The notes: generated by a model from the sequence alone, not told the origin. 32,000 nt of DNA from Massilicoli timonensis (GCF_900199515.1 NZ_LT963434.1:1173272-1205271), one strand, 5' to 3'; positions 13,265 to 32,000 are shown, numbered from the stretch's first letter. Program-made: numbers and translations.

Positions 13265-14521
13265 TTAGTTTTCCTCCTTTGCTGTCTCTTCTGCACATGC
13301 AAATTTATCTTCTCTTTTCATAAACGGAATATAAATGATATAACAAATCACTAATTGAACAAGCTGTGCGATGATTCCCTGCCAGCCGTTTGTAAAGAAT
13401 CCGCCGATGATGACCGGGAAGCCGGTAGGTAAGGTTACTCCGTTTGTATATGGCAAAAAGCCAATAATGGTAAGCAGATAAGCGCTCAATACCGAGGCGG
13501 CCGGTGTCAGGACCAAAGGAATAAGCATACGGATATTCATTACTTGCGGAATACCGAATTTGATCGGTTCACTGATACCGAATAATGCCGGAATCAACCC
13601 CAATTTGCCGGTTGCCTTTAATCGTTCCGATTTACAAGTAAATAAACAATGGAGCGCAACCGCTAAAGATCGGGCACCGCGATTTCCAAGGACAAAACCG
13701 AATGTAAATAAATACGGCAGTGTTTCTTTGGCATTGTATGCCGATAAGTTCGCCATCTGCGGTTCCATCCAAAGCATCATCATGATCGGCATCATGGTAA
13801 TAACACCGTGCATCCCAAAAAACCACAACAATTCAATAAAAGCCACTACCAGCATAGCCGAGAAGATATTATTTCCCAAGTGCATAAACGGCGTCTGGAT
13901 AAAAGTCATCAACATATTGGTTACTGTACCATACGGCGTGAGGCTCATGATCACATTGATGGTCGCAAAAATGACGGCTACCAAACATCCCGGTATAATT
14001 GCGGCGAACGAACTTGCCACAAACGGGGGCACAGAATCAGGCATCTTGATCGTAAACTTATGATCCGTTGCCCAAATATAAAGCCGTGCCGCAAGCAAAG
14101 AGCCAAACAATGCGGTGAAAATACCACTGCTGCCGAAATTACTGATATTGATAAATGTTCCATCTTCTAATACGGAAATCGGGCATAAGATCAGGAAAGA
14201 CATGATTCCCATAATACCGCAGTTCAGTGCATCTTTTTTCATGATATCGCCTAGTTTATAAGCTACTAAGAACGATACATACACTGAAATCGCATCAATC
14301 GTCATTGTAGAGATGACATTACAAACACTTAAAATTCCTGTGCTTCTCAAAATCGCCTGTGAAGAACCGATGTCAATCGCTGCGATCAGCGTGGCAACAG
14401 AGCTGATCATCATCAATGCCATTGTTGCCATCATGCCTTGAGATAACGCCTTCATATAAATATTATTTGAAAATGCTGTAGAAAATTTACCCAGCGCATC
14501 GCGCAATTTATCAAACTTCAT
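13265..14521 (-). CDS. PTS cellobiose-family EIIC permease
   Basis: 418 aa polytopic membrane protein in IIC-IIB-IIA order. Several + strand ORFs (13560-14063, 13808-14170) are antisense shadows. Confidence 0.85.
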   Translation of the reverse strand: MKFDKLRDALGKFSTAFSNNIYMKALSQGMMATMALMMISSVATLIAAIDIGSSQAILRSTGILSVCNVISTMTIDAISVYVSFLVAYKLGDIMKKDALNCGIMGIMSFLILCPISVLEDGTFINISNFGSSGIFTALFGSLLAARLYIWATDHKFTIKMPDSVPPFVASSFAAIIPGCLVAVIFATINVIMSLTPYGTVTNMLMTFIQTPFMHLGNNIFSAMLVVAFIELLWFFGMHGVITMMPIMMMLWMEPQMANLSAYNAKETLPYLFTFGFVLGNRGARSLAVALHCLFTCKSERLKATGKLGLIPALFGISEPIKFGIPQVMNIRMLIPLVLTPAASVLSAYLLTIIGFLPYTNGVTLPTGFPVIIGGFFTNGWQGIIAQLVQLVICYIIYIPFMKREDKFACAEETAKEEN

Positions 14522-14537
14522 AAAAATGTTCCTTTCC

Positions 14538-15320
14538 CTATTGTAAATAATTTTCTCTTATTTTAGTTACTTCTTCTATCGTGAGTCCTAATTCTCGGAT
14601 CACGTAGTTTTCAATACCGTTAAATTGTTCTTCAATCAAATTCAACGCGGCCAATAAAAATTCCTTGCGGGCTTCTTTCAGGTATCGTAATGCCAGTACA
14701 AAATCTTTATTTCCGGTCTTATCATAAACTTCTTTCAAGCTTCGCTCATTTTTCTCTTTTTTATATACGTTGGTCAATAGATAATCTTTGAGCACCGTTT
14801 CTTGATCTACGCCAAGCAGCAGTAAGATCAAAGCAGCACCATAACCGGTACGATCTTTCCCGCCTCGACAATGCTGGACCAATGGACAATTCCCTGTATC
14901 CAGCAGCAGTTTCAATAGTTTACGATAACTGCTCTTGGATGTTTCTGCTAAAACAAATTCTTCATTTTGCCGGTACATGAGCGAATACGCCTGTTTTGAA
15001 GAAATCATCGAACGGTTTTTTTCTAAAATGTCTTTATTTTCGCTGCTGGCTAACGCCGCCACATCAGCTTTCGGATCCAGATAAATGATCGTGCTGCCTT
15101 CGATCGGCACATCTTCATTATCGATCCGTTCCCGCTTCGCACGGTAATCAACGATTGTTTTAATGCCTATTTTCTCCAAAAGAGCAACATCACTTTCGCT
15201 TAGTTTGCTCAGTTCATCAGAACGATATAGAAGACCGGTTTTCACCGTTTTCCCATCCTTTGTCCGATAGCCGCCGATATCGCGAAAGTTATAGGCTCCT
15301 TCCAATTTTATTTTTTCCAT
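14538..15320 (-). CDS. Tyrosine-protein-phosphatase-like protein (CX5R P-loop, Y_phosphatase3-type)
   Basis: 260 aa. NFRDIGGY is near the N-terminus and the catalytic loop is VQHCRGGKDRTG. It sits 14 nt after the PRD regulator and 16 nt before EIIC. Confidence 0.8.
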   Translation of the reverse strand: MEKIKLEGAYNFRDIGGYRTKDGKTVKTGLLYRSDELSKLSESDVALLEKIGIKTIVDYRAKRERIDNEDVPIEGSTIIYLDPKADVAALASSENKDILEKNRSMISSKQAYSLMYRQNEEFVLAETSKSSYRKLLKLLLDTGNCPLVQHCRGGKDRTGYGAALILLLLGVDQETVLKDYLLTNVYKKEKNERSLKEVYDKTGNKDFVLALRYLKEARKEFLLAALNLIEEQFNGIENYVIRELGLTIEEVTKIRENYLQ

Positions 15321-15334
15321 AATTCACCTGCTTT

Positions 15335-17260
15335 TTAATAAGATGCTTTGATCAGTTCATTGATAAATGTTTCATAATCCGGCTGATCGATCATACGATA
15401 TAATACTTCTTGATTTAATAGCATTTTAATGATTCTTTCATATAAGAATACATACTTTTCACTGGATACCTTGCTCATGGAAATCAATAAGATCAAACGA
15501 ACTTTTTGATTTCCCCAATCAATCGATTTCTTTAAGAATGAAACTGAGACAAAGGTAAAATCCGTACAGCTCTCTATCGGATGGGGCAATGCCACATCAG
15601 GCAACAGATCCGTTGTAAACAGTTCCTCTCTTTTTAATACCAACTCCTTAAAATGCTTTGGCAGTTTTACATTTTCGCCCACTCGATCAATGATCCGATC
15701 CAAAGCTTCTTCTTTATCTTTTACATCTAAATTCGTAAAAAATAGACTCGGTCTGAAATATGCGATGGCATCTGATTTTTGAATTTCCTCCGATAATATG
15801 GATTGAATCCTTTTAACGGTTCTTTCATTCAGAAAGAAAGAAAATTCAAAAACGGGAATAGAAGTATCCACATTCAGCGGTACCGTAGTGAAAATGTAAT
15901 CTATTGCATGGTTTTGTAAATAACGCTCTATTTGATTGACATCACAAATATCTGCTTTCTCTATATATTGCTGGAAGTATTGCTGGAAATTGTAAAATAT
16001 CATCTGCGAGGTCGCTCTCCCACTTCCACATACGATCAGTATTTTTTTCTTGCGAATATTTTGGATTTCTTTTTTCAATGCGACATTGAAGTGCAAGGCA
16101 AAATAACTGATCTCTTGTTCCGACAGTTCAAAACCCCACTCGTCTTTTATCACCTCTGCCGCGATCAAAGACAACTCGTACCCGCTTACACATTGTGTTT
16201 TGATCTGTTCACAAATTGGATTCTTTAACACGACATCGTGTTCCAGCCGAAATTTTAGCGGTAACAGATGCAAGCCCAGCATGATGCGCAAATTAAAATC
16301 ATCTAATAAATCAATGCCGATAATATCTCGTATCGTAATTAAGATTTTTTCAACTAGTTGATTGATCGCTTCCGGGATTTGTTGGTTATGTTTTTGATCC
16401 AATTCACGTTTCGATAGGATCTGTAATAAAATATATTCTCTTTCTGAAGCACTGAACGTGATCGCAAATTCATTCTCTAAACAATCAATCAGCTCATCTG
16501 CCAAATCATTCATATTAGAAGATACTTTCTGTTGTCCCAGTGAATAGTCAATTTCTTTCCCTTCCATAATTCTTTTTACACTGATATAGAGGTGTGAGGA
16601 TAATGCTTCTTGTAAATAATCCGGCATGCTGTATTTTTGATCTTCAAAGACCTTTTCAATAATCTGCTTGATCTTGCAGTATGCTTTATCTGACTTACTG
16701 AAATAATAGAAATTATCTTCTACCAGTCTTTGCACATAGTTGCTTGAAATAAATCTCCTCAAATCAAATTCTTCGCCGATGATTCTGATGCCGTAGTGAG
16801 GCTTCATTTGAATTTTCAAATTGTAATTTGCTAAAATATGTCTGATTTTTTTTAATATTTTAGTCAATGTCGATTTAGAGATAAAGAATTCTTCTGTCAA
16901 ATCATCTGACTTTAAGTAGCCGTTTTCTGTGACCAGCCGAGAGAGTATCTGATCTACCAGTTGTTCTTCCGTATAGGGAACATTCGACAACAGCTGATCA
17001 AACAACTGTTGATCTTCAATCACCAGCAAGTAACCGAAACCATGTTTCACTGCAATCTTGGCGCCATAAGATGTCAGTTCATCCTCTAAACAACGAATAC
17101 GGTGTTGAATTGTTTTGGTACTTTTGTCTAATAAAGTTGCAATTTTATTGCCGGACACATAAGCATCGCTCTCCATTAAAATTTTCAAAATTTGATAATC
17201 AATCTTCTCTATCATTTCCTCACCACCTACAGTATAACGAGCGTTGTATTCTTTTTCCAA
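15335..17260 (-). CDS. PRD-domain transcriptional regulator of the LicR/CelR/MtlR type (HTH + PRDs + EIIB-like + EIIA-like)
   Basis: 641 aa. An N-terminal HTH region is followed by long helical PRD-like repeats, an EIIB-like KKILIVCGSGRATSQM and a C-terminal EIIA-like part. The alternative start at 17215 (MIEKIDYQ) has a GGTGGTGAGG RBS and may be the true start. Confidence 0.8.
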   Translation of the reverse strand: MEKEYNARYTVGGEEMIEKIDYQILKILMESDAYVSGNKIATLLDKSTKTIQHRIRCLEDELTSYGAKIAVKHGFGYLLVIEDQQLFDQLLSNVPYTEEQLVDQILSRLVTENGYLKSDDLTEEFFISKSTLTKILKKIRHILANYNLKIQMKPHYGIRIIGEEFDLRRFISSNYVQRLVEDNFYYFSKSDKAYCKIKQIIEKVFEDQKYSMPDYLQEALSSHLYISVKRIMEGKEIDYSLGQQKVSSNMNDLADELIDCLENEFAITFSASEREYILLQILSKRELDQKHNQQIPEAINQLVEKILITIRDIIGIDLLDDFNLRIMLGLHLLPLKFRLEHDVVLKNPICEQIKTQCVSGYELSLIAAEVIKDEWGFELSEQEISYFALHFNVALKKEIQNIRKKKILIVCGSGRATSQMIFYNFQQYFQQYIEKADICDVNQIERYLQNHAIDYIFTTVPLNVDTSIPVFEFSFFLNERTVKRIQSILSEEIQKSDAIAYFRPSLFFTNLDVKDKEEALDRIIDRVGENVKLPKHFKELVLKREELFTTDLLPDVALPHPIESCTDFTFVSVSFLKKSIDWGNQKVRLILLISMSKVSSEKYVFLYERIIKMLLNQEVLYRMIDQPDYETFINELIKASY

Positions 17261-17468
17261 CGATGAAATTTCTCTTACCTAAAAGAACTATTACCCGCTA
17301 AATGTAAGAATAAACAGCATTCCTTTCTTGACTTTTTCTTTTATATGACCGTGATTCACAAAATAACAGATAGGTGCACACGCCGGAAAAAATGTATCCT
17401 ATTCACTATTTGTAAGAGGGCATTTCGTATCGCTTCGTCATTGCAATCAAGTTCCGATAAACGCAAAA

Positions 17469-17510
17469 AAGGACGGTTATTCCACATTATGGAATTGCCC
17501 CTCCTTTTTG
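17469..17510. terminator. Probable bidirectional terminator downstream of purD
   Basis: ATTCCA (17479-17484) / TGGAAT (17490-17495) core, extended by GG/CC pairs. An A6 run lies on the left and a T-rich run on the right. Confidence 0.45.
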
Positions 17511-23561: not shown

Positions 23562-24554
23562 ATGAAAGTCGCAACGGTGGGAACCGGTTTTATCGTAGAA
23601 TGGTTTTTGACATCTGTGGAACGAAATGAAGGTGCGAAGTGTGTCGCCGTATATTCCAGGAAAGAAACGACCGGCAGAAAGCTGGCAGATCAATATCATG
23701 TGGAAAAGGTCTATACGGATTTTACGGAAATGTTGAAAGATGCGGAGATTGATACGGTTTATGTGGCATCGCCTAATTCACTGCATTATCATTATGCGCT
23801 GGAAGCATTGCAGGCGGGGAAGCATGTGATCTGTGAAAAGCCGTTTACTTCTACTGTAGATGAATTAAAGCATTTGATCCAGGTCGCAAAAGCAAAGCGT
23901 TTGTTTTTGTTTGAGGCAATCGTAACCAGACATATGCCAAACTATCGGATCATCCGGGAACATGTCGAACAACTGGGGAAGATTCACATGGTACAGTGTA
24001 ATTTTTCACAGTATTCCTCCCGCTATGACAAGTTTCTCGCCGGAGAAAATCCTAATGTTTTCAATCCTGCTTTTTCCGGCGGGGCGCTGATGGATCTCAA
24101 TATTTATAATCTTCATTTTGTGATGGGCTTGTTTGGAAAACCGCAGGAAGTTCGCTATGAGCCAAGTCTTGCTGCTAACGGGATCGATACTGCAGGCGTG
24201 CTGCTTTTGACTTATCCGGACTTTCAGGCTGTCTGCATCGCCTGTAAAAACTGTGAAGCGGCGAATTATACCCAGATTCAGGGTGAGAATGGCTATCTGC
24301 TTGTAAACGGTGCGACTTCTTTATTACAGGAGGTCATGCTTAACCTGAAACAAAAACAGACAAATATCGGAACAGAGGAGATCATGCCGGGCTTGTACTA
24401 TGAGGTAAAAGCATTTGTTTCAATGATGAAGCAGGGAGATCTAGACGCATGTTATCGGGAATTGGAAAACTCATTGGCGGTATTTGAGGTGCTGTATGAA
24501 GCCAGAGTAAAGGCCGGGATCCATTTCGCGGCAGATGAAGAAACATTATCCTAA
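23562..24554 (+). CDS. Gfo/Idh/MocA-family NAD(P)-dependent oxidoreductase
   Basis: The Rossmann N-terminus is MKVATVGTGFI and the family motif VICEKPF is present. ATG 23562 lies 9 nt after AAGGAG; the track start is GTG 23553. Confidence 0.85.
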   Translation: MKVATVGTGFIVEWFLTSVERNEGAKCVAVYSRKETTGRKLADQYHVEKVYTDFTEMLKDAEIDTVYVASPNSLHYHYALEALQAGKHVICEKPFTSTVDELKHLIQVAKAKRLFLFEAIVTRHMPNYRIIREHVEQLGKIHMVQCNFSQYSSRYDKFLAGENPNVFNPAFSGGALMDLNIYNLHFVMGLFGKPQEVRYEPSLAANGIDTAGVLLLTYPDFQAVCIACKNCEAANYTQIQGENGYLLVNGATSLLQEVMLNLKQKQTNIGTEEIMPGLYYEVKAFVSMMKQGDLDACYRELENSLAVFEVLYEARVKAGIHFAADEETLS

Positions 24555-24569
24555 AACATTCATAAAAAA

Positions 24570-24610
24570 TGCAGGCAATCGAGCAAAATATCGTGCCTGC
24601 ATTTTCTTTT
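24570..24610. terminator. Bidirectional rho-independent terminator between convergent genes
   Basis: AAAAAA-TGCAGGCA (24570-24577) - 16-nt loop - TGCCTGCA (24594-24601) - TTTTCTTTT. Confidence 0.75.
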
Positions 24611-24670
24611 ATCTTTTAATTGTATCCAAAACAATTCGTTGTACGCACTTGCGCTTACATGAAATGATCG

Positions 24671-25153
24671 TTATGCTTCTTCCCAGTCCTTGCAAACATC
24701 GACCCATTCTTTTGCCTGTGCATATCGTTCCAATTCAGGCAATGTCATCTTGATCATGCTGTTGGCGCTTCCGGCAGCCGGATAAACTTCTGTAAATCGC
24801 CGCAGCGAGACATCTAAATATACATCGATTCCGTCGTTGATGCCAAACGGACAAACGCCACCGACATCATGACCGATCAGCTTTTCCACTTGATCTGATG
24901 GAATCATCTTCGCTTTTACCTGAAAACAGGCCTTATATTTGCGGTTGTCGATTTTCGCATCACCTGCGGTTACGATCAAAAGCGGCTTCCCTTCTACTAA
25001 AAAGGACATGGTCTTGGCAATTTCCTTAGGCGAACAGCCGATCACCGCCGCTGCTAACGCGACAGTGGCGCTGGAGTCAGACAGCACGCAGATACGATCT
25101 GCCATATCAAACTGTCCAAAATAATGAATCACCCGCTCTAAAGACATCACCAT
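24671..25153 (-). CDS. YbaK/EbsC-family aminoacyl-tRNA editing domain protein
   Basis: 160 aa with the family-typical GHDVGGVCPFG. The start may be the third codon (25147) given AGGAGG spacing. Confidence 0.75.
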   Translation of the reverse strand: MVMSLERVIHYFGQFDMADRICVLSDSSATVALAAAVIGCSPKEIAKTMSFLVEGKPLLIVTAGDAKIDNRKYKACFQVKAKMIPSDQVEKLIGHDVGGVCPFGINDGIDVYLDVSLRRFTEVYPAAGSANSMIKMTLPELERYAQAKEWVDVCKDWEEA

Positions 25154-25218
25154 TCCTCCTATTCCTCATTTCAAATAAGACAGAAAACTTTTTTCGTCGT
25201 TTATGGATCACAGAAACA

Positions 25219-25980
25219 CTAACCGAATAAACGCTTATAATTTGCGAGAACTGCCTCAGACAGCGCTTCGCTGTCGCAATGCTTCAGTTCGCAGATTTTT
25301 TCAAACGTATATGTGACATAGCGCGGCTCATTGCGCTTGCCGCGATGCGGATGCGGCGTTAAATAAGGCGCATCTGTTTCCACCAGAATATGATCGAGCG
25401 GTACGACCGGCGGCACTTCTACCAAAGCTCTTGCATTTTTGTAAGTGATCGGCCCCGCAAAGGAAATATCCATGCCTGCTTTCATCAGTACTTTCGCACT
25501 CTCGGCACTGCCGCTGTAACAGTGCATCAAGCCTTTTCCTTGCAGATGGGTCTGAATGATCGCAATCGTATCCTGCATCGCTTCCCGACTGTGAACGATG
25601 ATCGGTTTTTGCAGTTTTTGGGCCTGCTTGATCTGGCGGATAAACCCTTCCTTTTGTAACTGTGCATGTTCCTTATCCCAATGATAGTCTAAACCGATCT
25701 CACCGATCGCCTTGACATCCTCATCTTGCGTGATCGCATAAAACGCATTCCAGTCCGCCTCTGTCATTTCGTGCAGATCGCTGGGAAAAAGACCGTAAGC
25801 AATATCTAACAGATCATGATACTTTGCTTTTAACTGCTTTGCCCGCTGAAATTCCTCCGGATTCAAAGTAATCACCATCATCTTAACGATGCCTGCCGCC
25901 TGTGCATTGGCGATGATTTCCTCTGCGTCCTCATATAAGCCATCGCTTGCCAGATGCACATGTGAATCTACCAGTTTCAT
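25219..25980 (-). CDS. tatD: TatD-family metal-dependent hydrolase/DNase
   Basis: 253 aa with DSHVHL, GEIGLDYHW, VHSR, HCYSG and ETDAPYLTP. Confidence 0.88.
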   Translation of the reverse strand: MKLVDSHVHLASDGLYEDAEEIIANAQAAGIVKMMVITLNPEEFQRAKQLKAKYHDLLDIAYGLFPSDLHEMTEADWNAFYAITQDEDVKAIGEIGLDYHWDKEHAQLQKEGFIRQIKQAQKLQKPIIVHSREAMQDTIAIIQTHLQGKGLMHCYSGSAESAKVLMKAGMDISFAGPITYKNARALVEVPPVVPLDHILVETDAPYLTPHPHRGKRNEPRYVTYTFEKICELKHCDSEALSEAVLANYKRLFG

Positions 25981-26037
25981 CCTATTCCTCCTTTGCTCTT
26001 GCTGTATGTTTGCGCATGCGTCTTTTGATCCTACCGT

Positions 26038-27369
26038 TTATTTTCCTAAGCAGAAATTGGAGAACAGCGCGTCTAACAGATCTTCTCGATGCACTTCACC
26101 CAGAATTTCTTTTAATGCCGAATAGGCTTCCTGTATGTCGATCGCCACCAGATCCAGCTCCATGCCCGCTTCCATTGCCGTGATTGCCTGCGTCATTGCC
26201 TGCTGCGCTTTCATCATCAAGGCGATCTGGCGATCATTGGCTAAGGAAGGCTCCTTCAATACGATCAGATGCTCGTCATAGCGACGGTGGATCTCTTTGA
26301 TCAGCGCATCGATCTCGCCGTTCGCCGCACTGATCCAGATGCCTTCTTTGGAAGGCGCTTGGCTGATGTCCTTTTTATTATAAACGATGATGCGGTTTTT
26401 ATCGGCAGTCTTTTCCAATAATTCCTGATCCTGCTGATCTGCTTCTTTACTGCCGTCCAGCACCACGATCACCAACTGTGCTTCTTCGATCGCTTTCAGT
26501 GAACGCGCAATGCCGATTTTCTCAACGGTATCCTGTGTTTCCCGAATTCCGGCAGTGTCGATCAAATGCAAAGTAAATGCGCCTAAGTGAATGCTTCCTT
26601 CCACGATGTCCCGTGTAGTACCGGCAATATCGGTTACAATGGCTTTTTCTTCTTCCAACAAAGCATTCAAAAGACTGCTTTTCCCAACATTCGCCTGTCC
26701 GACGATCGCCGTGGAAATCCCTTCTTTTACGATCTTTCCGCTATTGGCGCGCGCTAAGATTGCATTGATCTTCTGCGCCCAGTCTCTTGCCTTCGGCAAC
26801 AACACCTCATTGGTTAATTGTTCGACATCATCATATTCCGGATAGTCGATGTTCACTTCAATATGTGCAATGATGTCCAACAGCTCTTCTAAAAAAGGAT
26901 CCAGCAGTTTTTTGATGCTGCCGCGGATTCCCTGCACCGCAAGCTTTGCTTCCGATGCGCCTTCGGCAGCGATCATATCATTGATGGCCTCTGCTTGGGT
27001 AAGATCGATCCTGCCGTTCAAAAAAGCGCGCTGGGTAAATTCACCGCGTGTCGCCAATCTCGCTCCATTTGCCAATAAAAGCCGCAATATTTTTCTGGTG
27101 ATGTAAATACCGCCATGGCAGTTGATCTCCACCATATCCTCTCTGGTAAATGTCTTAGGGGCGCGAAATACCGATATCAGCACTTCATCTAGCACTTCTT
27201 CGCTTTGTGGATCTTTGATATAGCCATAGTGAATGGTATGACTTGGCGCATCATGCAAAGAGCAGGTGCATAGCGTATCTGCAATGGCAATCGCATCTTC
27301 TCCGCTCATACGCACGATGGAAATGGCTCCTTGATCAAGTGCTGTTGAAATCGCAGCTATCGTATCCAT
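26038..27369 (-). CDS. mnmE: tRNA modification GTPase MnmE (TrmE)
   Basis: 443 aa. G1 is GQANVGKSSLLNAL and G3 is DTAGIR. The C-terminal FCLGK (CxGK) motif is present. Confidence 0.92.
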   Translation of the reverse strand: MDTIAAISTALDQGAISIVRMSGEDAIAIADTLCTCSLHDAPSHTIHYGYIKDPQSEEVLDEVLISVFRAPKTFTREDMVEINCHGGIYITRKILRLLLANGARLATRGEFTQRAFLNGRIDLTQAEAINDMIAAEGASEAKLAVQGIRGSIKKLLDPFLEELLDIIAHIEVNIDYPEYDDVEQLTNEVLLPKARDWAQKINAILARANSGKIVKEGISTAIVGQANVGKSSLLNALLEEEKAIVTDIAGTTRDIVEGSIHLGAFTLHLIDTAGIRETQDTVEKIGIARSLKAIEEAQLVIVVLDGSKEADQQDQELLEKTADKNRIIVYNKKDISQAPSKEGIWISAANGEIDALIKEIHRRYDEHLIVLKEPSLANDRQIALMMKAQQAMTQAITAMEAGMELDLVAIDIQEAYSALKEILGEVHREDLLDALFSNFCLGK

Positions 27370-27394
27370 ACTATCATCCTTCTTCCTGCTCTAC

Positions 27395-27423
27395 ATTTTA
27401 ACATAGAATAAGCGGATTGCCTA
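27395..27423 (-). promoter_or_regulatory. Candidate mnmE promoter
   Basis: On the minus strand: TAGGCA (rc of 27418-27423), a 17-nt spacer, then extended -10 TGTTAAAAT (rc of 27395-27403). It lies about 25 nt upstream of the ATG, with GGAAGAAGGA as RBS. Confidence 0.4.
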
Positions 27424-27774
27424 ATGATAGCTGCACATAAAACGATATCAGCCAATCAGTCGAAAGCGGACTGCCGCGCGTCATTCCTTATCGGCTAAAG
27501 CGTACCGGAAAACAACAGAAAAAGTCATCAGGTATATGAACAGTAATTTTTGAACGCTTTGCTACTATAACATGCTTTATAACAGCGCTTCTATCTACAT
27601 CAGATTATCTTTTGTGTCAGTCATGCATCATAACTCTACACGCGAAGTTCTATGCGATACCAAAAGGCAGATAGACAAGAATCATCAGTCCGTATAAAAC
27701 TAAACTGTTACCAGAAAATCATTTCGATGCTATTTTAGGAAGCGCATCCGAATCATGAATCTTTTTCGTTCTAC

Positions 27775-28578
27775 CTAGGAGGGCTGTATTTTTAATTGAC
27801 ACCATAACAGATTATGATCGGAAAAGGAGCTTTGCAGCGTTCCCTTGTCTAACAAGGTAAAATGATCGGCATAGAAAATGTTGTCTGGGAAACCGAAATC
27901 ACGGAATGTAAGCAACGGTGCAGCGGCATTATTGATCTGTTCATAGCCGTCAATGGTAAAAAAATCATCGGCGGTGAATGTATTGAAGTCCCCCATGAGG
28001 ATCGTGTTACGCTCATTTTGCAGTTCCTCTTTTAAGTAGTCGATCTGCTCCCATCTGACGTCGCGTTCTTTATAACTTAAATGAGTGAGATAAACAGAAA
28101 GGATTTCTTCGCCTGCCTGAATCTTTGCGCCGGCAAGAATACGCGGCTCCTTTAACAGTTCATTAGGCAAAGAATGAGAAGATACGGAAAGGATCGGATA
28201 ACGGCTCAAAATGCCCAACCCATAATAACCGTCCACCATCCACATCGTTTCGTAAAAGTAATAATAAGGATAGTCAGCGGCAGCGGCTAATTCTTTTACC
28301 ATTTCCATCTCATTTGAACGAAAAGCGCTCTCATCCACTTCCTGCAATACTAAAATATCAGCCTGCGCCGTTTTTAGATCTTGTACGCACGCATGCAGAT
28401 CTTCTCCCTGGTTCAGCGTCTTGATGTTATAGGTGGCAATCTTTATTGTTTCAGGCGTTTTGATGTTTTCCTTATTGCCTAATTCGCGATTATAATTGCG
28501 GCTGTTGTGGCGCCACAAGGCAAAAACGCCGATCGCTGCTATAACAATCAGAATGCCGATCACTACTTTTCGTTTCAC
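27775..28578 (-). CDS. Endonuclease/exonuclease/phosphatase (EEP) family protein with N-terminal membrane anchor or signal
   Basis: 267 aa. The N-terminal hydrophobic helix is VVIGILIVIAAIGVFALW. EEP blocks are IATYNIK, LVLQEVD, MGDFN and SDHNLLW. It ends in TAG. Confidence 0.8.
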   Translation of the reverse strand: MKRKVVIGILIVIAAIGVFALWRHNSRNYNRELGNKENIKTPETIKIATYNIKTLNQGEDLHACVQDLKTAQADILVLQEVDESAFRSNEMEMVKELAAAADYPYYYFYETMWMVDGYYGLGILSRYPILSVSSHSLPNELLKEPRILAGAKIQAGEEILSVYLTHLSYKERDVRWEQIDYLKEELQNERNTILMGDFNTFTADDFFTIDGYEQINNAAAPLLTFRDFGFPDNIFYADHFTLLDKGTLQSSFSDHNLLWCQLKIQPS

Positions 28579-28657
28579 ACTGCCACCTCACTTTCCTGTT
28601 TTTCTTATTTTAACACGTTCCATTTGCACATAATAGTTGCAAAGCATAAATTTTTGA

Positions 28658-28686
28658 TTGATTTTTTTAATGATGCGCGTTACAAT
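28658..28686 (+). promoter_or_regulatory. Candidate promoter of tRNA-Thr
   Basis: TTGATT (28658-28663), a 17-nt spacer, then TACAAT (28681-28686), about 17 nt upstream of the mature tRNA 5' end. Confidence 0.5.
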
Positions 28687-28703
28687 AAGAAGGCAAAGAA
28701 AAT

Positions 28704-28779
28704 GCCGACTTAGCACAGTTGGTAGTGCAACGCACTCGTAACGCGTAGGTCGTAGGTTCAAGTCCTATAGTCGGCACCA
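28704..28779 (+). tRNA. tRNA-Thr (anticodon CGU), CCA encoded
   Basis: Manual fold. Acceptor is GCCGACT/AGTCGGC. D arm is GCAC-AGTTGGTA-GTGC. The anticodon arm is ACGCA-CTCGTAA-CGCGT (one A.C mismatch) with CGT at positions 34-36. The T arm is GTAGG-TTCAAGT-CCTAT, with a 3' ACCA tail. Confidence 0.9.
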
Positions 28780-28791
28780 TTTAATATATAG

Positions 28792-28818
28792 CACCTCTCA
28801 TTTTGAGGGGTGTTTTTT
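28792..28818 (+). terminator. Rho-independent terminator after tRNA-Thr
   Basis: 8-bp stem CACCTCTC / GAGGGGTG (one G.U pair), loop ATTTT, then TTTTTT (28813-28818). Confidence 0.8.
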
Positions 28819-28917
28819 AGTTTATATATATTTTTTTAATTTTGAACAAAATCATAAATATTTCCAACAAATATAGCAAGAAGTTGCGATATTTTATTAT
28901 AAAAGCAATTGAACATA

Positions 28918-28946
28918 TTGAAAAAACGGCTTTGTAATAATATAAT
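28918..28946 (+). promoter_or_regulatory. Near-consensus sigma-A promoter of the island cassette
   Basis: TTGAAA (28918-28923), a 17-nt spacer, then TATAAT (28941-28946). An imperfect palindrome TAATAATATAATTA overlaps the -10. The HTH gene ATG is at 28979 behind AAGAGGTAGAG. Confidence 0.6.
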
Positions 28947-28978
28947 TAAACTGTATTTTTAAGATAAGAGGTAGAGAA

Positions 28979-29188
28979 ATGAAAATCAGTTATAAAAAAC
29001 TATGGATATTGCTTATTGAAAAAGAAATTTCTCCAGTATCATTAAGAGCTGATTTAAATATCGCAACTGGTACAATGACTAAGTTGAGAAGAAATGAAGA
29101 AGTCGCACTATCTGTATTATTGCGTATCTGCGGTTATTTAGATTGTAATATTGGAGATATATGCGATGCTATTAAAACTGAAGAATAA
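28979..29188 (+). CDS. Small XRE/Cro-type helix-turn-helix transcriptional regulator
   Basis: 69 aa. MKISYKKLWILLIEKEISPVSLRADLNIATGTMTKLRRNEEVALSVLLRICGYLDCNIGDICD matches the common ~70-aa HTH family (KLW.LL..K......L....GI...T..KL...E.VS..VL.KIC..L.C.I.DI). Confidence 0.8.
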   Translation: MKISYKKLWILLIEKEISPVSLRADLNIATGTMTKLRRNEEVALSVLLRICGYLDCNIGDICDAIKTEE

Positions 29189-29211
29189 AATATACAAAGG
29201 AGGATAAATGA

Positions 29212-29863
29212 ATGAAGGTTTGCATGAATTGCGGAAAAGAATTAAATGAAGATGATAAATTTTGTTCTAATTGTGGAAAATCAACTTTAGATGACAATAG
29301 CAAACGGAAAACAGTTTATGAAGGTGAAATACATAAATGCCCAAATTGTGGTAACACGATAAATGCCTATGAAATGGTGTGTACAACTTGTGGGCATGAA
29401 ATCAGAGGAAGACAAATTACAAGTCAAGTACATAAGTTATCATTAAAATTAGAAAACACTAATAATGTGCAAAAAAAAAGAAGAATTAATTCGAACTTTT
29501 TATATTCCAAATACTAAAGAAGAAATTTATGAATTTTTTATTCTTGCAAGTTCAAATATTAAAATTGGCGGTATGAATACAAATGCATGGATGGTTAAAA
29601 TTGAACAAGCATATCAAAAGGCAGAATTATCTTTTGGAAATACCAGTGAATTTGAACGTTTGAAATCAATGTATGTTCAAATAAAAAAAATGAATAAGAA
29701 AAACTATGCATTCAATTTTTTTAAATCAAAATATGCGTGGGCGTTAATCTTTTTTATCATAGGAATTTTCTTTTTTTTAGTATACTCAGCATCTAATAAT
29801 GAAAACATTGGTGTTATTAGTCTTATGTTTATTGTTATAGCAGCGGGGGTAGCAATTGAGTGA
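29212..29863 (+). pseudogene. Double zinc-ribbon protein with two C-terminal TM helices, split into two track ORFs by a frameshift in an A9 tract
   Basis: ORF 29212-29517 carries CMNCGKELNEDDKFCSNCG and CPNCGNTINAYEMVCTTCG. ORF 29465-29863 (the +1 frame) continues with KKEELIRTFYIPNTKEEIYEFFILASSNI... and ends in two hydrophobic helices (WALIFFIIGIFFFLVY; IGVISLMFIVIAAGVAI). Removing one A from 29471-29479 joins them as ...NNVQKKEELIRTFYIPNTKEE... into one 216-aa protein. Confidence 0.7.
29471..29479 (+). repeat. A9 homopolymer at the frameshift point
   Basis: gtgc-AAAAAAAAA-gaag. A length of 8 or 11 would be in frame. Confidence 0.95.
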
Positions 29864-29922
29864 TAAAAAATAGAAAATATTAAAGTTATAAAAGACATTA
29901 GACATAGAATGGAGGATATATT

Positions 29923-31251
29923 ATGTCAATATTCAATAGGAAAAATAAAACTGGAGGATTTATGGATGAAATTAGATGTGATGAAAAGTCATATTTAATA
30001 TGGAAATGGCATCCATCTGGAAAAGAGTTAGGAGAAGGAAATAGAGAAAATGCTATTAGATATGGTTCATCGTTACGAGTAAAAGATGGTGAAGTTGCTG
30101 TATTTGTTTATAAACAAAAAGATGAAACTATGCAAGAGTTTATTGAAGGACCATATGATGAAATCATCAAAACAAATAACTTTCCTATCCTTGCAAGTAT
30201 TGTGGGCTTAGCATACGAGGGGGGAACTCCTTTCCAAGCAGAAATTTACTTTATAAATCTTGCTCGTATTATCCAAGTAAAATTTGGTGTTCCATTTTTT
30301 GATGTATATGATCCTAGATTTATGGATTTTGGTGTCCCAACTGCTGTTAGAGGAACTATAAGTTTCAAGATTAACGATTACAGAGAATTTATTAAATTAC
30401 ATCGACTTAATACTTTTAATTTAGATGATTTTCAAAGAGAAATTAGAGATGCGGTTTGTCGTTATGTTAAAGATATCGTAGCAAATGCACCAGCTCAAAA
30501 TAATATTCCTTTAGTTCAAATTGAAACAAAAACTTCTCAAATAAATGATGTTGTAGAATTACATATTGAAGAAAGATTGAATGAAGATTTTGGTGTGACA
30601 GTATCTGGAGTAGACATATCTGCAATTGAACTAGATAAATCAAGTGATGGATTTAAACAATTAATGAGTGTAACGAAAGATATTGATATTGTTAAAGTAC
30701 AAGCACAAACAGAAGATTATGTTGAAAGACTTCGTATTCAAAGAGAAGAAGGTCAATATGCACAACATAAACAAACTCAAACTGCTAATATTGGGGCTTT
30801 CCAAGTCGAAAAACAGGCAGAAGTTGGTGTTGCTGGTGCTGAAGCATTAGGTCAAATGGGAACTAATGAAGCAGGAGATATTAATTTAGGTGATAATGGA
30901 GATGGATTTAATATGGCAGCAATGATGGCCAGTATGGCTGTTGGAGGTGCTGTTGGACAAAATATTGCAGGTTCAATAAGTAATATGATGTCTGGAATAA
31001 ACCAGCCTAACCAAATCGGAATAACACCACCACCTTTACCTACTGTAATGTATTATGTTGCAGTAAACGGCGAAGCAACTGGTCCTTTTGATTTAAATAC
31101 ATTATCTCAAATGATTGTGCAAGGAACATTGACTAAAGATACTCTTGTTTGGAAGCAAGGAATGGATAATTGGGATAGAGCAGGAAATATTATTGAAATA
31201 TTATCTTTATTTAATGTTAATAACGTTCCTCCACTTCCAGAGAAATTTTAG
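29923..31251 (+). CDS. SPFH-domain protein of the YdjI / COG4260 (Band_7_1, 'virion core protein-like') type with a C-terminal GYF_2-type domain
   Basis: 442 aa with GGAGG at 29909-29913. The N-terminus MSIFNRKNKTGGFMDEIRCDEKSYLIWKWHP...GSSLRVKDGEVAVFV...FQAEIYFINL follows the YdjI-family pattern. It continues with a charged helical stretch (RLRIQREEGQYAQHKQ), a G/A/M-rich linker, then MYYVAVNGEATGPFDLNTLSQMIVQGTLTKDTLVWKQGMDNWDRAGNI (GYF_2/DUF4339 pattern). Confidence 0.8.
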   Translation: MSIFNRKNKTGGFMDEIRCDEKSYLIWKWHPSGKELGEGNRENAIRYGSSLRVKDGEVAVFVYKQKDETMQEFIEGPYDEIIKTNNFPILASIVGLAYEGGTPFQAEIYFINLARIIQVKFGVPFFDVYDPRFMDFGVPTAVRGTISFKINDYREFIKLHRLNTFNLDDFQREIRDAVCRYVKDIVANAPAQNNIPLVQIETKTSQINDVVELHIEERLNEDFGVTVSGVDISAIELDKSSDGFKQLMSVTKDIDIVKVQAQTEDYVERLRIQREEGQYAQHKQTQTANIGAFQVEKQAEVGVAGAEALGQMGTNEAGDINLGDNGDGFNMAAMMASMAVGGAVGQNIAGSISNMMSGINQPNQIGITPPPLPTVMYYVAVNGEATGPFDLNTLSQMIVQGTLTKDTLVWKQGMDNWDRAGNIIEILSLFNVNNVPPLPEKF

Positions 31252-31446
31252 ATGGAGAGCAAAATCATGAGTAATTGGAAAAGTATAAAAAATTTCAGTA
31301 GAGATATTATTGAAGAAGTAAGAGAAAGAAATAGGCAAAGATTTAATGATGCTCAAATAGAAATTCAGATAGAAGATATAAAGAAAATAGTTTATGTATT
31401 GAAAGAACTTGATATAGAAAACGATAAGATCATTCGAATTTTGTAG
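31252..31446 (+). CDS. Small hypothetical protein directly abutting the SPFH gene; possibly truncated by TAG (open frame continues to 31503)
   Basis: The ATG at 31252 directly follows the SPFH stop codon (31249-31251). The 64 aa are charged and helical. After TAG (31444-31446) the same frame reads KHWDLRLSEAEYFLNNME then TAA. Confidence 0.45.
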   Translation: MESKIMSNWKSIKNFSRDIIEEVRERNRQRFNDAQIEIQIEDIKKIVYVLKELDIENDKIIRIL

Positions 31447-31536
31447 AAGCATTGGGATTTAAGATTAAGTGAAGCTGAATACTTTTTAAATAATATGGAA
31501 TAAAACGAACGGTTTAGCTAGTTAGGAGGTGTTTTT

Positions 31537-31683
31537 ATGGAAGAAAAATTAAACAAAAATATTCTCTCATCTTCTCACATTAATTTTTTGTTCGGTGTGG
31601 GTGTGAATAGAAGTGCATTCCCTCAACTTAAAGGATTTATTAAAACTATAATGTTATTTTATTTGGGAATAGGGGGATTTTAA
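31537..31683 (+). pseudogene. 48-codon stub resembling the N-terminus of SIR2_2/DUF4917-type Rossmann-like defence proteins (probable deletion remnant)
   Basis: Not in the track because it is under 60 aa. AGGAGGTG at 31524-31531, ATG at 31537. The product is MEEKLNKNILSSSHINFLFGVGVNRSAFPQLKGF, followed by the unrelated hydrophobic tail IKTIMLFYLGIGGF and a stop. The hydrophobic strand plus F-G-x-G-x-N loop resembles the FLGAGxS start of such proteins. This is a weak, pattern-level call. Confidence 0.25.
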
Positions 31684-31715
31684 ATGAATCAAAAGATGAG
31701 AAAGAGGATGATTAA

Positions 31716-32000
31716 ATGAGTGCAGAGCAAGAATATTACATTAGTTTAATAGAAAGGCTATGTCATTTTTCTAACGAAACAGAGTGGTTAGAATTTAAAG
31801 TCAACAATGATGAACCATCTCTAATTGGCGAATATGTTTCTGCGTTAAGCAATTCTGCTACTATATGCGAAAAAGAAAAAGCATATATGATTTGGGGGAT
31901 TGATGATAGCACTCATGAAATCGTTGGTACTAGTTTTAGTCCGAAACAGACGAAAATTGGTAACGAAGAATTAGAAAATTGGCTATTAAGAGCATTAAAG
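31716..32000 (+). CDS. AlbA_2 (Schlafen-like, 'divergent AAA / putative DNA-binding') domain ATP-binding protein, N-terminal part only
   Basis: Not in the track because it runs off the edge. ATG at 31716 gives MSAEQEYYISLIERLCHFSNETEWLEFKVNNDEPSLIGEYVSALSNSATICEKEKAYMIWGIDDSTHEIVGTSFSPKQTKIGNEELENWLLRALK. The E.LEFK.....IGEY.SALSNSA....AY.IWG.DD.TH..VGT pattern is typical of AlbA_2 N-termini. Confidence 0.7.
   Translation, partial: MSAEQEYYISLIERLCHFSNETEWLEFKVNNDEPSLIGEYVSALSNSATICEKEKAYMIWGIDDSTHEIVGTSFSPKQTKIGNEELENWLLRALK

Follow-up and report, generated by a model that had tools for sequence, protein, structure and literature searches.

The window analysed here is a stretch of 32,000 nucleotides from Massilicoli timonensis, a human-gut Erysipelotrichaceae-like bacterium, and the present text deals with its last part, an islet of low-G+C DNA at positions 28780–32000. 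This part follows directly on a tRNA-Thr gene with anticodon CGU (28704–28779, + strand; ARAGORN, Rfam tRNA 68 bits), which is the only tRNA gene of the window. A single-change-point maximum-likelihood scan of the whole 32 kb placed the G+C change point at 28778, one base before the 3′ end of the tRNA, with a log likelihood ratio of 100, the G+C content being 0.427 on the left and 0.300 on the right. In sliding windows, G+C passes from 0.41–0.48 to 0.28–0.33 from about 28800 to the window end. The right segment lies at z = −5.5 standard deviations relative to all core windows of equal length, the lowest of which (0.365) is found at about 14.5 kb. Also, the G+C content at third codon positions (GC3) is 0.15–0.25 in the six open reading frames (ORFs) of the islet versus 0.47–0.53 in five neighbouring core genes. 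An original prediction, made from the sequence of the window, had described a G+C step directly at the tRNA-Thr end, and the sharp step seen here bears this out. Its hand-counted value for the island (16–18 G+C per 60 nt) was correct, but that for the core (29–37) was somewhat too high, the true core mean being about 26.

The proteins of the islet were screened against Pfam, NCBIfam, PHROGs and PADLOC; all of its genes lie on the + strand. The first three of them form what we call the cassette. It starts with a gene for an XRE/Cro-type helix-turn-helix (HTH) regulator of the HTH_26 family (28979–29188, +; Pfam, E = 1.5e-16), which also gave a weak VanU-like match below the cutoff. The region upstream of the cassette (28869–28978, +) is conserved together with it in two contigs described below (L017/L018), to which 28869–29206 is 73% identical by blastn. 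A promoter scan predicted a sigma-70-like promoter, TTGAAA-17-TATAAT, at 28918–28946, with 11 of 12 matches. The third gene (29923–31251, +) encodes a protein of 442 aa which combines an SPFH domain (Pfam Band_7_1, E = 4e-23) with a GYF domain (GYF_2, E = 1e-18). Across 19 homologues, its invariant features are a TPPP motif before the GYF domain, a PPxP motif at the C-terminus and a hydrophobic stretch rich in Gly, Ala and Met. The sole match of this protein in a sequence search of the PDB was to a GYF domain (AglX/GltJ-type, E = 0.003). The protein was called with 442 aa in the window and in the conspecific copies L001/L002, and with 429 aa in L006/L007, despite 99.5% identical DNA, which looks like a start-codon polymorphism.

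Between these two genes lies a gene for a double-zinc-ribbon membrane protein (29212–29863, +; Pfam Zn_Ribbon_1 and DZR), which is frameshifted. It now consists of two overlapping ORFs, 29212–29517 (101 aa, with the Zn-ribbon/DZR part, which weakly matches the N-terminus of TcaA) and 29465–29863 (132 aa, hydrophobic and transmembrane). The cause, read from the sequence, is a homopolymer of nine A (A9) at 29471–29479 (+); eight A (A8) restore the frame. With one A removed, a single protein of 216 aa is obtained which contains two Zn ribbons, a conserved helical domain and C-terminal hydrophobic segments. This repaired ORF aligns across the break both with a 481-aa protein of L019 (E = 5e-45) and with a 236-aa protein of L048 (51% identity, E = 8e-57), two contigs in which the cassette was also found. 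All four sampled copies of the locus, i.e., the window and three independent assemblies, have A9, thus it is not a sequencing error. The tract could be the mark of a fixed pseudogene or a slippage-based phase switch.

Farther right, the window ends within a gene of the AlbA_2 (Schlafen-type) family with a HATPase_c_4 domain, of which only the 5′ part, residues 1–95, is inside (31716–32000, +; Pfam AlbA_2). The complete gene, with a product of 486 aa, extends to about window-equivalent 33176. A full-length copy (L002:1855–3315) matches both Pfam families, AlbA_2 with E = 3e-20 and HATPase_c_4 with E = 3e-17; a sequence search of the PDB with this protein gave no match.

Conspecific contigs were located via exact-protein look-ups, and the features past 32000 are known from these contigs, not from the window. 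One of them, L006, taken from a contig of 220 kb, is 99.5% identical to window 24001–32000 without a gap. Its alignment with a contig in which the site is empty (L025) delimits a low-G+C block of 4778 bp, hereafter allele A, which reaches on the right to about window-equivalent 33550, at 86 bp beyond the stop codon of a TMEM164-like core gene; this alignment and the change point together assign 28780–32000 (+) to the block. The full insert has a G+C content of 0.306, and its flanks 0.437 and 0.435. To the right of the AlbA_2 gene, about 370 bp of AT-rich non-coding DNA are followed by a return of G+C to 0.42–0.48, and the core genes past the block are, in order, the TMEM164-like gene, addB and addA. 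Thus, the island is indeed partial in the window, as had been predicted, since the AlbA_2 gene runs to about 33176 and the block to about 33550.

An abrupt break at a conserved tRNA could also come from an assembly chimera joining two organisms there. Four Logan contigs (L008, L009, L012 and L015), which stop inside the tRNA, speak for such a chimera. Nevertheless, three independent metagenome assemblies and the window all run continuously from the tRNA through the islet to the TMEM164-like gene and addBA at 99.5% identity, one of them on the 220 kb contig, and the core genes resume on the far side. We consider the probability of a chimera to be negligible. As for the four Logan contigs, which belong to the same species, they terminate after 53, 46, 53 and 27 nt of the tRNA-Thr, respectively. 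These ends precede the point where the alleles diverge, so that a second copy of part of the tRNA-Thr, or low coverage, may be involved.

Within this one species, the site exists in at least three states, empty (150 bp), allele A (4778 bp) and allele B (4691 bp), on contigs whose flanks are 98–99% identical. The empty state was found in L025 and L026, through a 97% identical variant of the flanking Exo_endo_phos protein. In both, a spacer of 150 bp separates the tRNA from the TMEM164-like gene, and the flanks are 99.2% and 98.7% identical to L006 at the nucleotide level. Allele B (L032–L039), which is more frequent than A among the contigs compared, occupies the same site with a G+C content of 0.30 and other cargo (L032 4140–6985): the genes for a 373-aa lipoprotein (opposite strand), a 113-aa HTH protein, a 43-aa ORF and a 316-aa lipoprotein, and then the AlbA_2 gene. 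The tRNA-Thr, identical in sequence in the three states, is the conserved left anchor of this variable site. Allele A departs from the empty and B alleles one nucleotide past the CCA end of the tRNA. The first 52 nt or so of allele B after the tRNA, which hold the native terminator, are the same as in the empty allele; allele A has none of these and shows in place of the native terminator a terminator-like hairpin with a T-run of its own (28790–28820, + strand, hairpin at 28790–28814; terminator scan and three-allele comparison). Relatives therefore do not all carry the same genes downstream of the tRNA-Thr, the flank being either empty or differently occupied, which makes the block accessory and the site a hotspot; for an islet at a hotspot, our confidence is high. 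These empty and alternative alleles in conspecific contigs also support the original prediction on its central point, that is, horizontally acquired accessory DNA beginning exactly at the tRNA 3′ end.

Protein similarities outside the species point in the same direction. Homologues of the SPFH-GYF protein with 74–82% identity were found in Faecalicoccus (Erysipelotrichia), Faecalimonas (Clostridia) and Peptoniphilus (Tissierellia), and homologues of the AlbA_2 protein with 74–81% identity in Clostridium, Traorella, Lachnospiraceae and Oscillospiraceae. For the adjacent core gene, Exo_endo_phos, identity does not exceed 55% outside the species, down from 97%. Such a difference between accessory proteins, conserved at 74–82% across classes, and a core gene at no more than 55% points to horizontal transfer. 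When the flanking Exo_endo_phos protein was searched against genome and metagenome contigs, only relatives with 28–32% identity and without synteny were returned.

An AT-rich block ancestral to the species, the empty allele being a secondary deletion without any horizontal acquisition, is hard to reconcile with these identities and is, in our opinion, very improbable. The AlbA_2 genes of alleles A and B differ at six synonymous sites only, so some form of the block does predate the A/B split. Against an ancestral origin stand, in addition to the protein identities, the GC3 of the islet genes, to be compared with about 0.5 in core genes, the absence of synteny at this site in a relative at 53% identity, and the empty allele itself, with about 98 nt of spacer unique to it and a native terminator that allele B has as well.

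The junction between alleles A and B could also be located. From window 31701 to the core flank, the two are identical in sequence save for the six synonymous sites just mentioned, and the transition, placed by blastn and by comparing L030 (A) directly with L032 (B), falls about 15 nt before the AlbA_2 start codon (31701–31715, +). The only parts common to A and B are thus the right-hand AlbA_2/HATPase_c_4 gene, with an identical protein in both, and its 3′ non-coding DNA. In allele B, the 316-aa lipoprotein shows 62% identity with the product of the gene after SPFH-GYF in L017 and L048, and the 373-aa lipoprotein has one domain in common with a ZnR-DUF6591-DUF4839 protein of L045 (ZnR, zinc ribbon). 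If one considers an extended cassette of four genes, allele A has genes 1–3 and allele B gene 4, each ahead of the same AlbA_2 gene. This split may reflect an ancestral island common to both, with differential loss, or else a repeated exchange of modules.

A particular arrangement was observed in the common 3′ DNA. Just past the AlbA_2 stop (L030 8459–8572, about window-equivalent 33174–33287), two direct repeats of 28 nt lie 86 nt apart. Each contains TCGTTGA-N4-TCGTTGA, i.e., two heptamers spaced by 11 nt, and together they flank a hairpin with arms of 19 nt; for the region as a whole, folding gives z = −4.5. All allele A and B loci long enough to include this point have the arrangement, and no other locus compared has it; a protein-binding array and a terminator are both conceivable.

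Counting the window, the HTH_26, Zn-ribbon-DZR and SPFH-GYF cassette was found in six independent contexts, and the HTH_26 gene is upstream in every other context whose contig extends that far. Integrase, relaxase or primase genes adjoin the cassette in four of the six, and guaA or a resolvase gene in the other two. In L017, the gene order is integrase, NikA-like, AAA_25, relaxase, TnpV, cassette, a 322-aa protein and AbiGi/AbiGii. Contigs L022–24 and L041–44 carry guaA, integrase, primase, DUF5906, MobA, cassette, ThsB_TIR, PDC-M50A, TIR_2, DUF1016 and, in some, ToxN, and contigs L045–47 carry integrase, NikA, AAA_25, Mob_Pre, TnpV, cassette and the ZnR-DUF6591-DUF4839 protein. In L019–21, AlbA_2/HATPase_c_4, DUF6414, AAA_2 and resolvase genes precede the cassette. 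Finally, in L048 (6122–20624), from another organism, guaA is followed by 1.4 kb without a called gene, the cassette, a 339-aa lipoprotein, an AlwI-type restriction-modification (RM) system, NOV_C and Gabija-like genes (AAA_15/TOPRIM and UvrD helicase); there is no integrase between guaA and the cassette, and the Zn-ribbon protein is intact (236 aa). The cassette is thus often accompanied elsewhere by a fourth gene, encoding a lipoprotein of 322–339 aa. Nucleotide similarity of the window to the other cassettes is confined to 28869–29654 and 29911–31197. Scans with the SPFH-GYF protein gave no match in viral contigs and only relatives with 30% identity or less in a plasmid collection, so that the cassette is not evidently phage- or plasmid-borne. 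The SPFH-GYF family comprises 190 representative clusters at E ≤ 1e-30 and 855 at E ≤ 1e-10. Family and cassette are widespread, highly conserved and uncharacterised.

The block itself carries no machinery for its own movement. No integrase, recombinase or relaxase is present among the genes of the whole 4.78 kb (L006/L030), and no terminal repeats or target-site duplication were found, a repeat scan of the islet having given short two-copy families only. Over 8 kb downstream, no match to the tRNA exceeds 10 nt, a length expected by chance, and the block end shows no distal right attachment site (attR) of the kind that delimits, by direct repeats, a classical tRNA-integrated island. The 137-bp stretch of the empty allele left unaligned by BLAST, inside the 150-bp spacer, matches the islet over at most 13 nt. 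The original prediction had seen neither an integrase nor a repeat of the tRNA end in the window, and this holds to the true end of the block. It had also proposed that the integrase and attR, if any, might lie beyond 32000; this was not supported, as core genes follow where the block stops, about 1.55 kb beyond the window, and the rightward extension up to these genes revealed no integrase, relaxase, target-site duplication or tRNA-end repeat longer than 10 nt.

This situation raises the question of a decayed integrative mobilisable element (IME), inserted by a tyrosine integrase at the tRNA-Thr 3′ end and from which integrase, relaxase, attR and native spacer were later deleted. The left boundary is in agreement with such a history: allele A diverges one nucleotide past the CCA end and comes with a terminator of its own, which is what an attL junction would be expected to show. 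Also, in L017, L022–24 and L045–47, close relatives of the cassette have integrase genes next to them, together with relaxase or primase genes, and L048 offers a parallel, with the cassette next to guaA without integrase, while in L022–24 the integrase directly adjoins guaA. However, neither an integrase fragment, nor a relaxase, nor a tRNA-end repeat longer than 10 nt is left in the 4.78 kb, and no cassette-bearing locus has a tRNA. Where the elements are intact, the cassette lies inside them, with the relaxase and TnpV genes upstream of it, and not at an element end, so that two precise deletions would be needed. The A/B junction at the AlbA_2 start moreover looks like module exchange, not decay. 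The attachment repeats of the L022 and L045 elements were searched and not found. On balance, decay from an IME appears to us rather unlikely.

Taken together, these data lead us to consider it probable that 28780–32000 makes up the left two-thirds of an islet of 4.78 kb that was acquired horizontally, is non-autonomous and occupies a recombination hotspot, with tRNA-Thr(CGU) on one side and the TMEM164-like gene with addBA on the other. For its cassette, we propose the following mode of action. The HTH_26 regulator would control the operon from the conserved promoter at 28918–28946. By analogy with YdjG/H and YdjI, the Zn-ribbon membrane protein may recruit and anchor the soluble SPFH-GYF protein at the membrane. 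In Bacillus subtilis, YdjG, a Zn-ribbon transmembrane protein, and YdjH recruit the cytoplasmic Band-7 protein YdjI (PMC8581546; bioRxiv 10.1101/2021.02.15.431232). The GYF domain would then bind the invariant flanking TPPP and PPxP motifs, giving an oligomeric scaffold. Bacterial GYF domains with flanking proline-rich stretches, as well as the SPFH+GYF architecture, have been described by Balaji and Aravind (2007; PMC2034487), who proposed binding to these flanking motifs for bacterial GYF proteins. Such a scaffold could protect or gate the envelope against an invader or a membrane insult. As the anchor gene is frameshifted by A9, the cassette is probably off or impaired in this strain, unless slippage restores A8.

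Several points weigh against this interpretation. The junctions are those of a replacement (150 bp by 4778 bp) and not of a clean insertion with duplication, so that the block may equally well have come in by site-specific integration with a later deletion. The interaction of the Zn-ribbon and SPFH-GYF proteins and the binding of GYF to PPxP are predictions. An AlphaFold2 model of the SPFH-GYF protein, built with 19 close homologues, had a mean pLDDT (predicted local distance difference test) of 41, too poor to be used. The likeness to the PspA-YdjG/YdjH/YdjI (SamGHI) system of B. subtilis is architectural only, with no pspA (ESCRT-III-like; no PspA/Snf7-type gene) in the islet or the six contexts, and these six contexts were compared without background statistics. 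Regarding defence, which the original prediction had coupled to the island, PADLOC recognised no known defence system among the proteins of the window and islet, and no SPFH-based anti-phage system came up either in PADLOC or in a literature search. The term "defence" thus derives from neighbourhood association only.

This association is as follows. Defence-type neighbours (AbiG; TIR/PDC-M50A/ToxN; RM and Gabija-like) lie downstream of the cassette in three of the five external contexts, a small sample taken without background statistics. In one AlbA_2 context, a 79% identical homologue of the AlbA_2 protein adjoins Lamassu-like (LmuB_C) and Eco57I-type RM genes. The AlbA_2 protein of the islet itself gave weak partial PADLOC matches (Aga_SIR2-PNTD, 4.5e-8; pAgo, 3e-6; PDC-S50, 2e-4). 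Proteins of the COG2865 type, with AlbA_2 and HATPase_c_4, are reportedly enriched in defence islands. Nevertheless, a true anti-phage function of the cassette seems doubtful to us. Its parts, all tied to the envelope, are at least as similar to the YdjG/YdjI stress module of B. subtilis as to any known defence system. The partners of the cassette being lipoproteins and proteins with ectodomains, the whole module looks envelope-directed, for stress protection or for exclusion of incoming DNA or phage, and we see the chances that the cassette acts at the envelope in one of these two ways as evenly balanced.

One possibility on the side of envelope stress is a maintenance module of the YdjG/H/I (SamGHI) type that travels on mobile elements and has no defence role, in which case "defence island" would be a misnomer. 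The architecture matches, with a Zn-ribbon transmembrane protein encoded upstream of a soluble Band_7_1 SPFH protein. Also compatible with it are the weak matches to VanU (regulator) and to the N-terminus of TcaA (Zn-ribbon part), both named for glycopeptide-resistance loci, the partner genes (lipoproteins, DUF6591/DUF4839 proteins) and the lack of PADLOC hits. However, no context contains a PspA gene, the genes downstream are in several cases AbiGi/AbiGii, ThsB_TIR/PDC-M50A/TIR_2/ToxN, or RM and Gabija-like genes, and a spread across classes at 74–82% identity is typical of selfish or conflict cargo. We regard this module as a tentative alternative, on the unlikely side but with some weight. 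More speculative, and with a lower probability in our eyes, is the idea that the cassette, with the optional lipoprotein, constitutes an undescribed envelope defence or exclusion system borne by mobile elements. On this quite unlikely scheme, a membrane-anchored SPFH scaffold, assembled through GYF-PPxP contacts, might sense or block the entry of phage or conjugative DNA, or trigger an abortive membrane collapse, and the A8/A9 tract would be a phase-variable switch. Should such an envelope-level system be borne out, it would be mechanistically of a new class and would supply a role for the SPFH-GYF proteins of bacteria.

Two small orphan ORFs lie between the SPFH-GYF and AlbA_2 genes. The first (31252–31446, +) encodes 64 aa, or 59 aa from the ATG chosen by the gene caller, and has no family match and no similarity to other loci. 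Beyond the TAG that closes it, a further 18 codons can be read in the same frame (31444–31503, KHWDLRLSEAEYFLNNME) up to a TAA, and the region may represent a gene interrupted by a nonsense mutation. The second (31537–31683, +; 48 aa) has a good ribosome-binding site and is absent from allele B. It had been read as a "SIR2-like stub", a proposal that found no support: Pfam (E ≤ 5), NCBIfam, PHROGs and PADLOC returned no match, and a tblastn search against the plasmid collection remained at chance level (E = 10). The other accessory genes of the original prediction, encoding the HTH regulator, the zinc-ribbon transmembrane protein, SPFH-GYF and AlbA_2, were all recovered with Pfam. The 450 bp specific to allele A (31252–31700) were also considered as a decayed copy of the lipoprotein gene of allele B, and neither tblastn nor tblastx gave a signal.

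A second, milder G+C dip (0.35–0.37) was seen in the window at 14500–17500, over a Y_phosphatase3 gene and a gene for a PRD/Mga/EIIA-type regulator of the phosphotransferase system (PTS). It adjoins PTS EIIC and glycoside hydrolase family 1 genes and could be a separately acquired sugar-utilisation cluster.

The locus is of some value as a clean natural case in which one site, within an uncultured-type gut Erysipelotrichaceae population, exists as three alleles whose breakpoints could be defined to the base, and in which modules are exchanged without any recombinase in the locus. Also, the cassette repeatedly heads the cargo or defence region of mobilisable elements.

Compared with known systems, the islet is of a known kind, a small tRNA-flanked accessory islet or hotspot, and as a genomic feature it is ordinary. 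Like tRNA-associated islands and core-flanked hotspots, it shows a break of G+C and codon usage at the tRNA 3′ end, is variable between strains with alternative cargo, lies between conserved core genes, and carries cargo related to genes of mobile elements. Unlike a classical tRNA-integrated island, it has no integrase, flanking direct repeats or mobility genes, measures only 4.8 kb and has replacement junctions, and unlike defence hotspots it lacks a system recognised by PADLOC. Relatives of the cassette, 75–82% identical in nucleotides, are cargo of IMEs of Bacillota (integrase, NikA-like, AAA_25 or primase, relaxase, TnpV, cargo) in L017, L022–24, L041 and L045–47, whereas the window locus has no integration or mobilisation genes.

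The AlbA_2 protein of the islet has the architecture of COG2865-type proteins ("putative DNA-binding" or "RecG-like"), with an N-terminal AlbA_2 and a C-terminal HATPase_c_4 domain. As for the cassette, its closest parallel is the SamGHI system, where a Zn-ribbon membrane protein is likewise encoded upstream of a soluble SPFH/Band-7 protein, a likeness known here from shared domains at the level of Pfam. In B. subtilis, YdjI depends on the Zn-ribbon membrane protein for its recruitment to the membrane (PMC8581546; bioRxiv 10.1101/2021.02.15.431232). The cassette differs in having no recognisable ydjH and in possessing its own HTH_26 regulator. At the end of its SPFH protein stands a GYF domain with PPxP motifs on its flanks, whereas proteins of the YdjI type end in a zinc finger. 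Finally, SamGHI is a chromosomal sigma-W operon, whereas the cassette is cargo of mobile elements.

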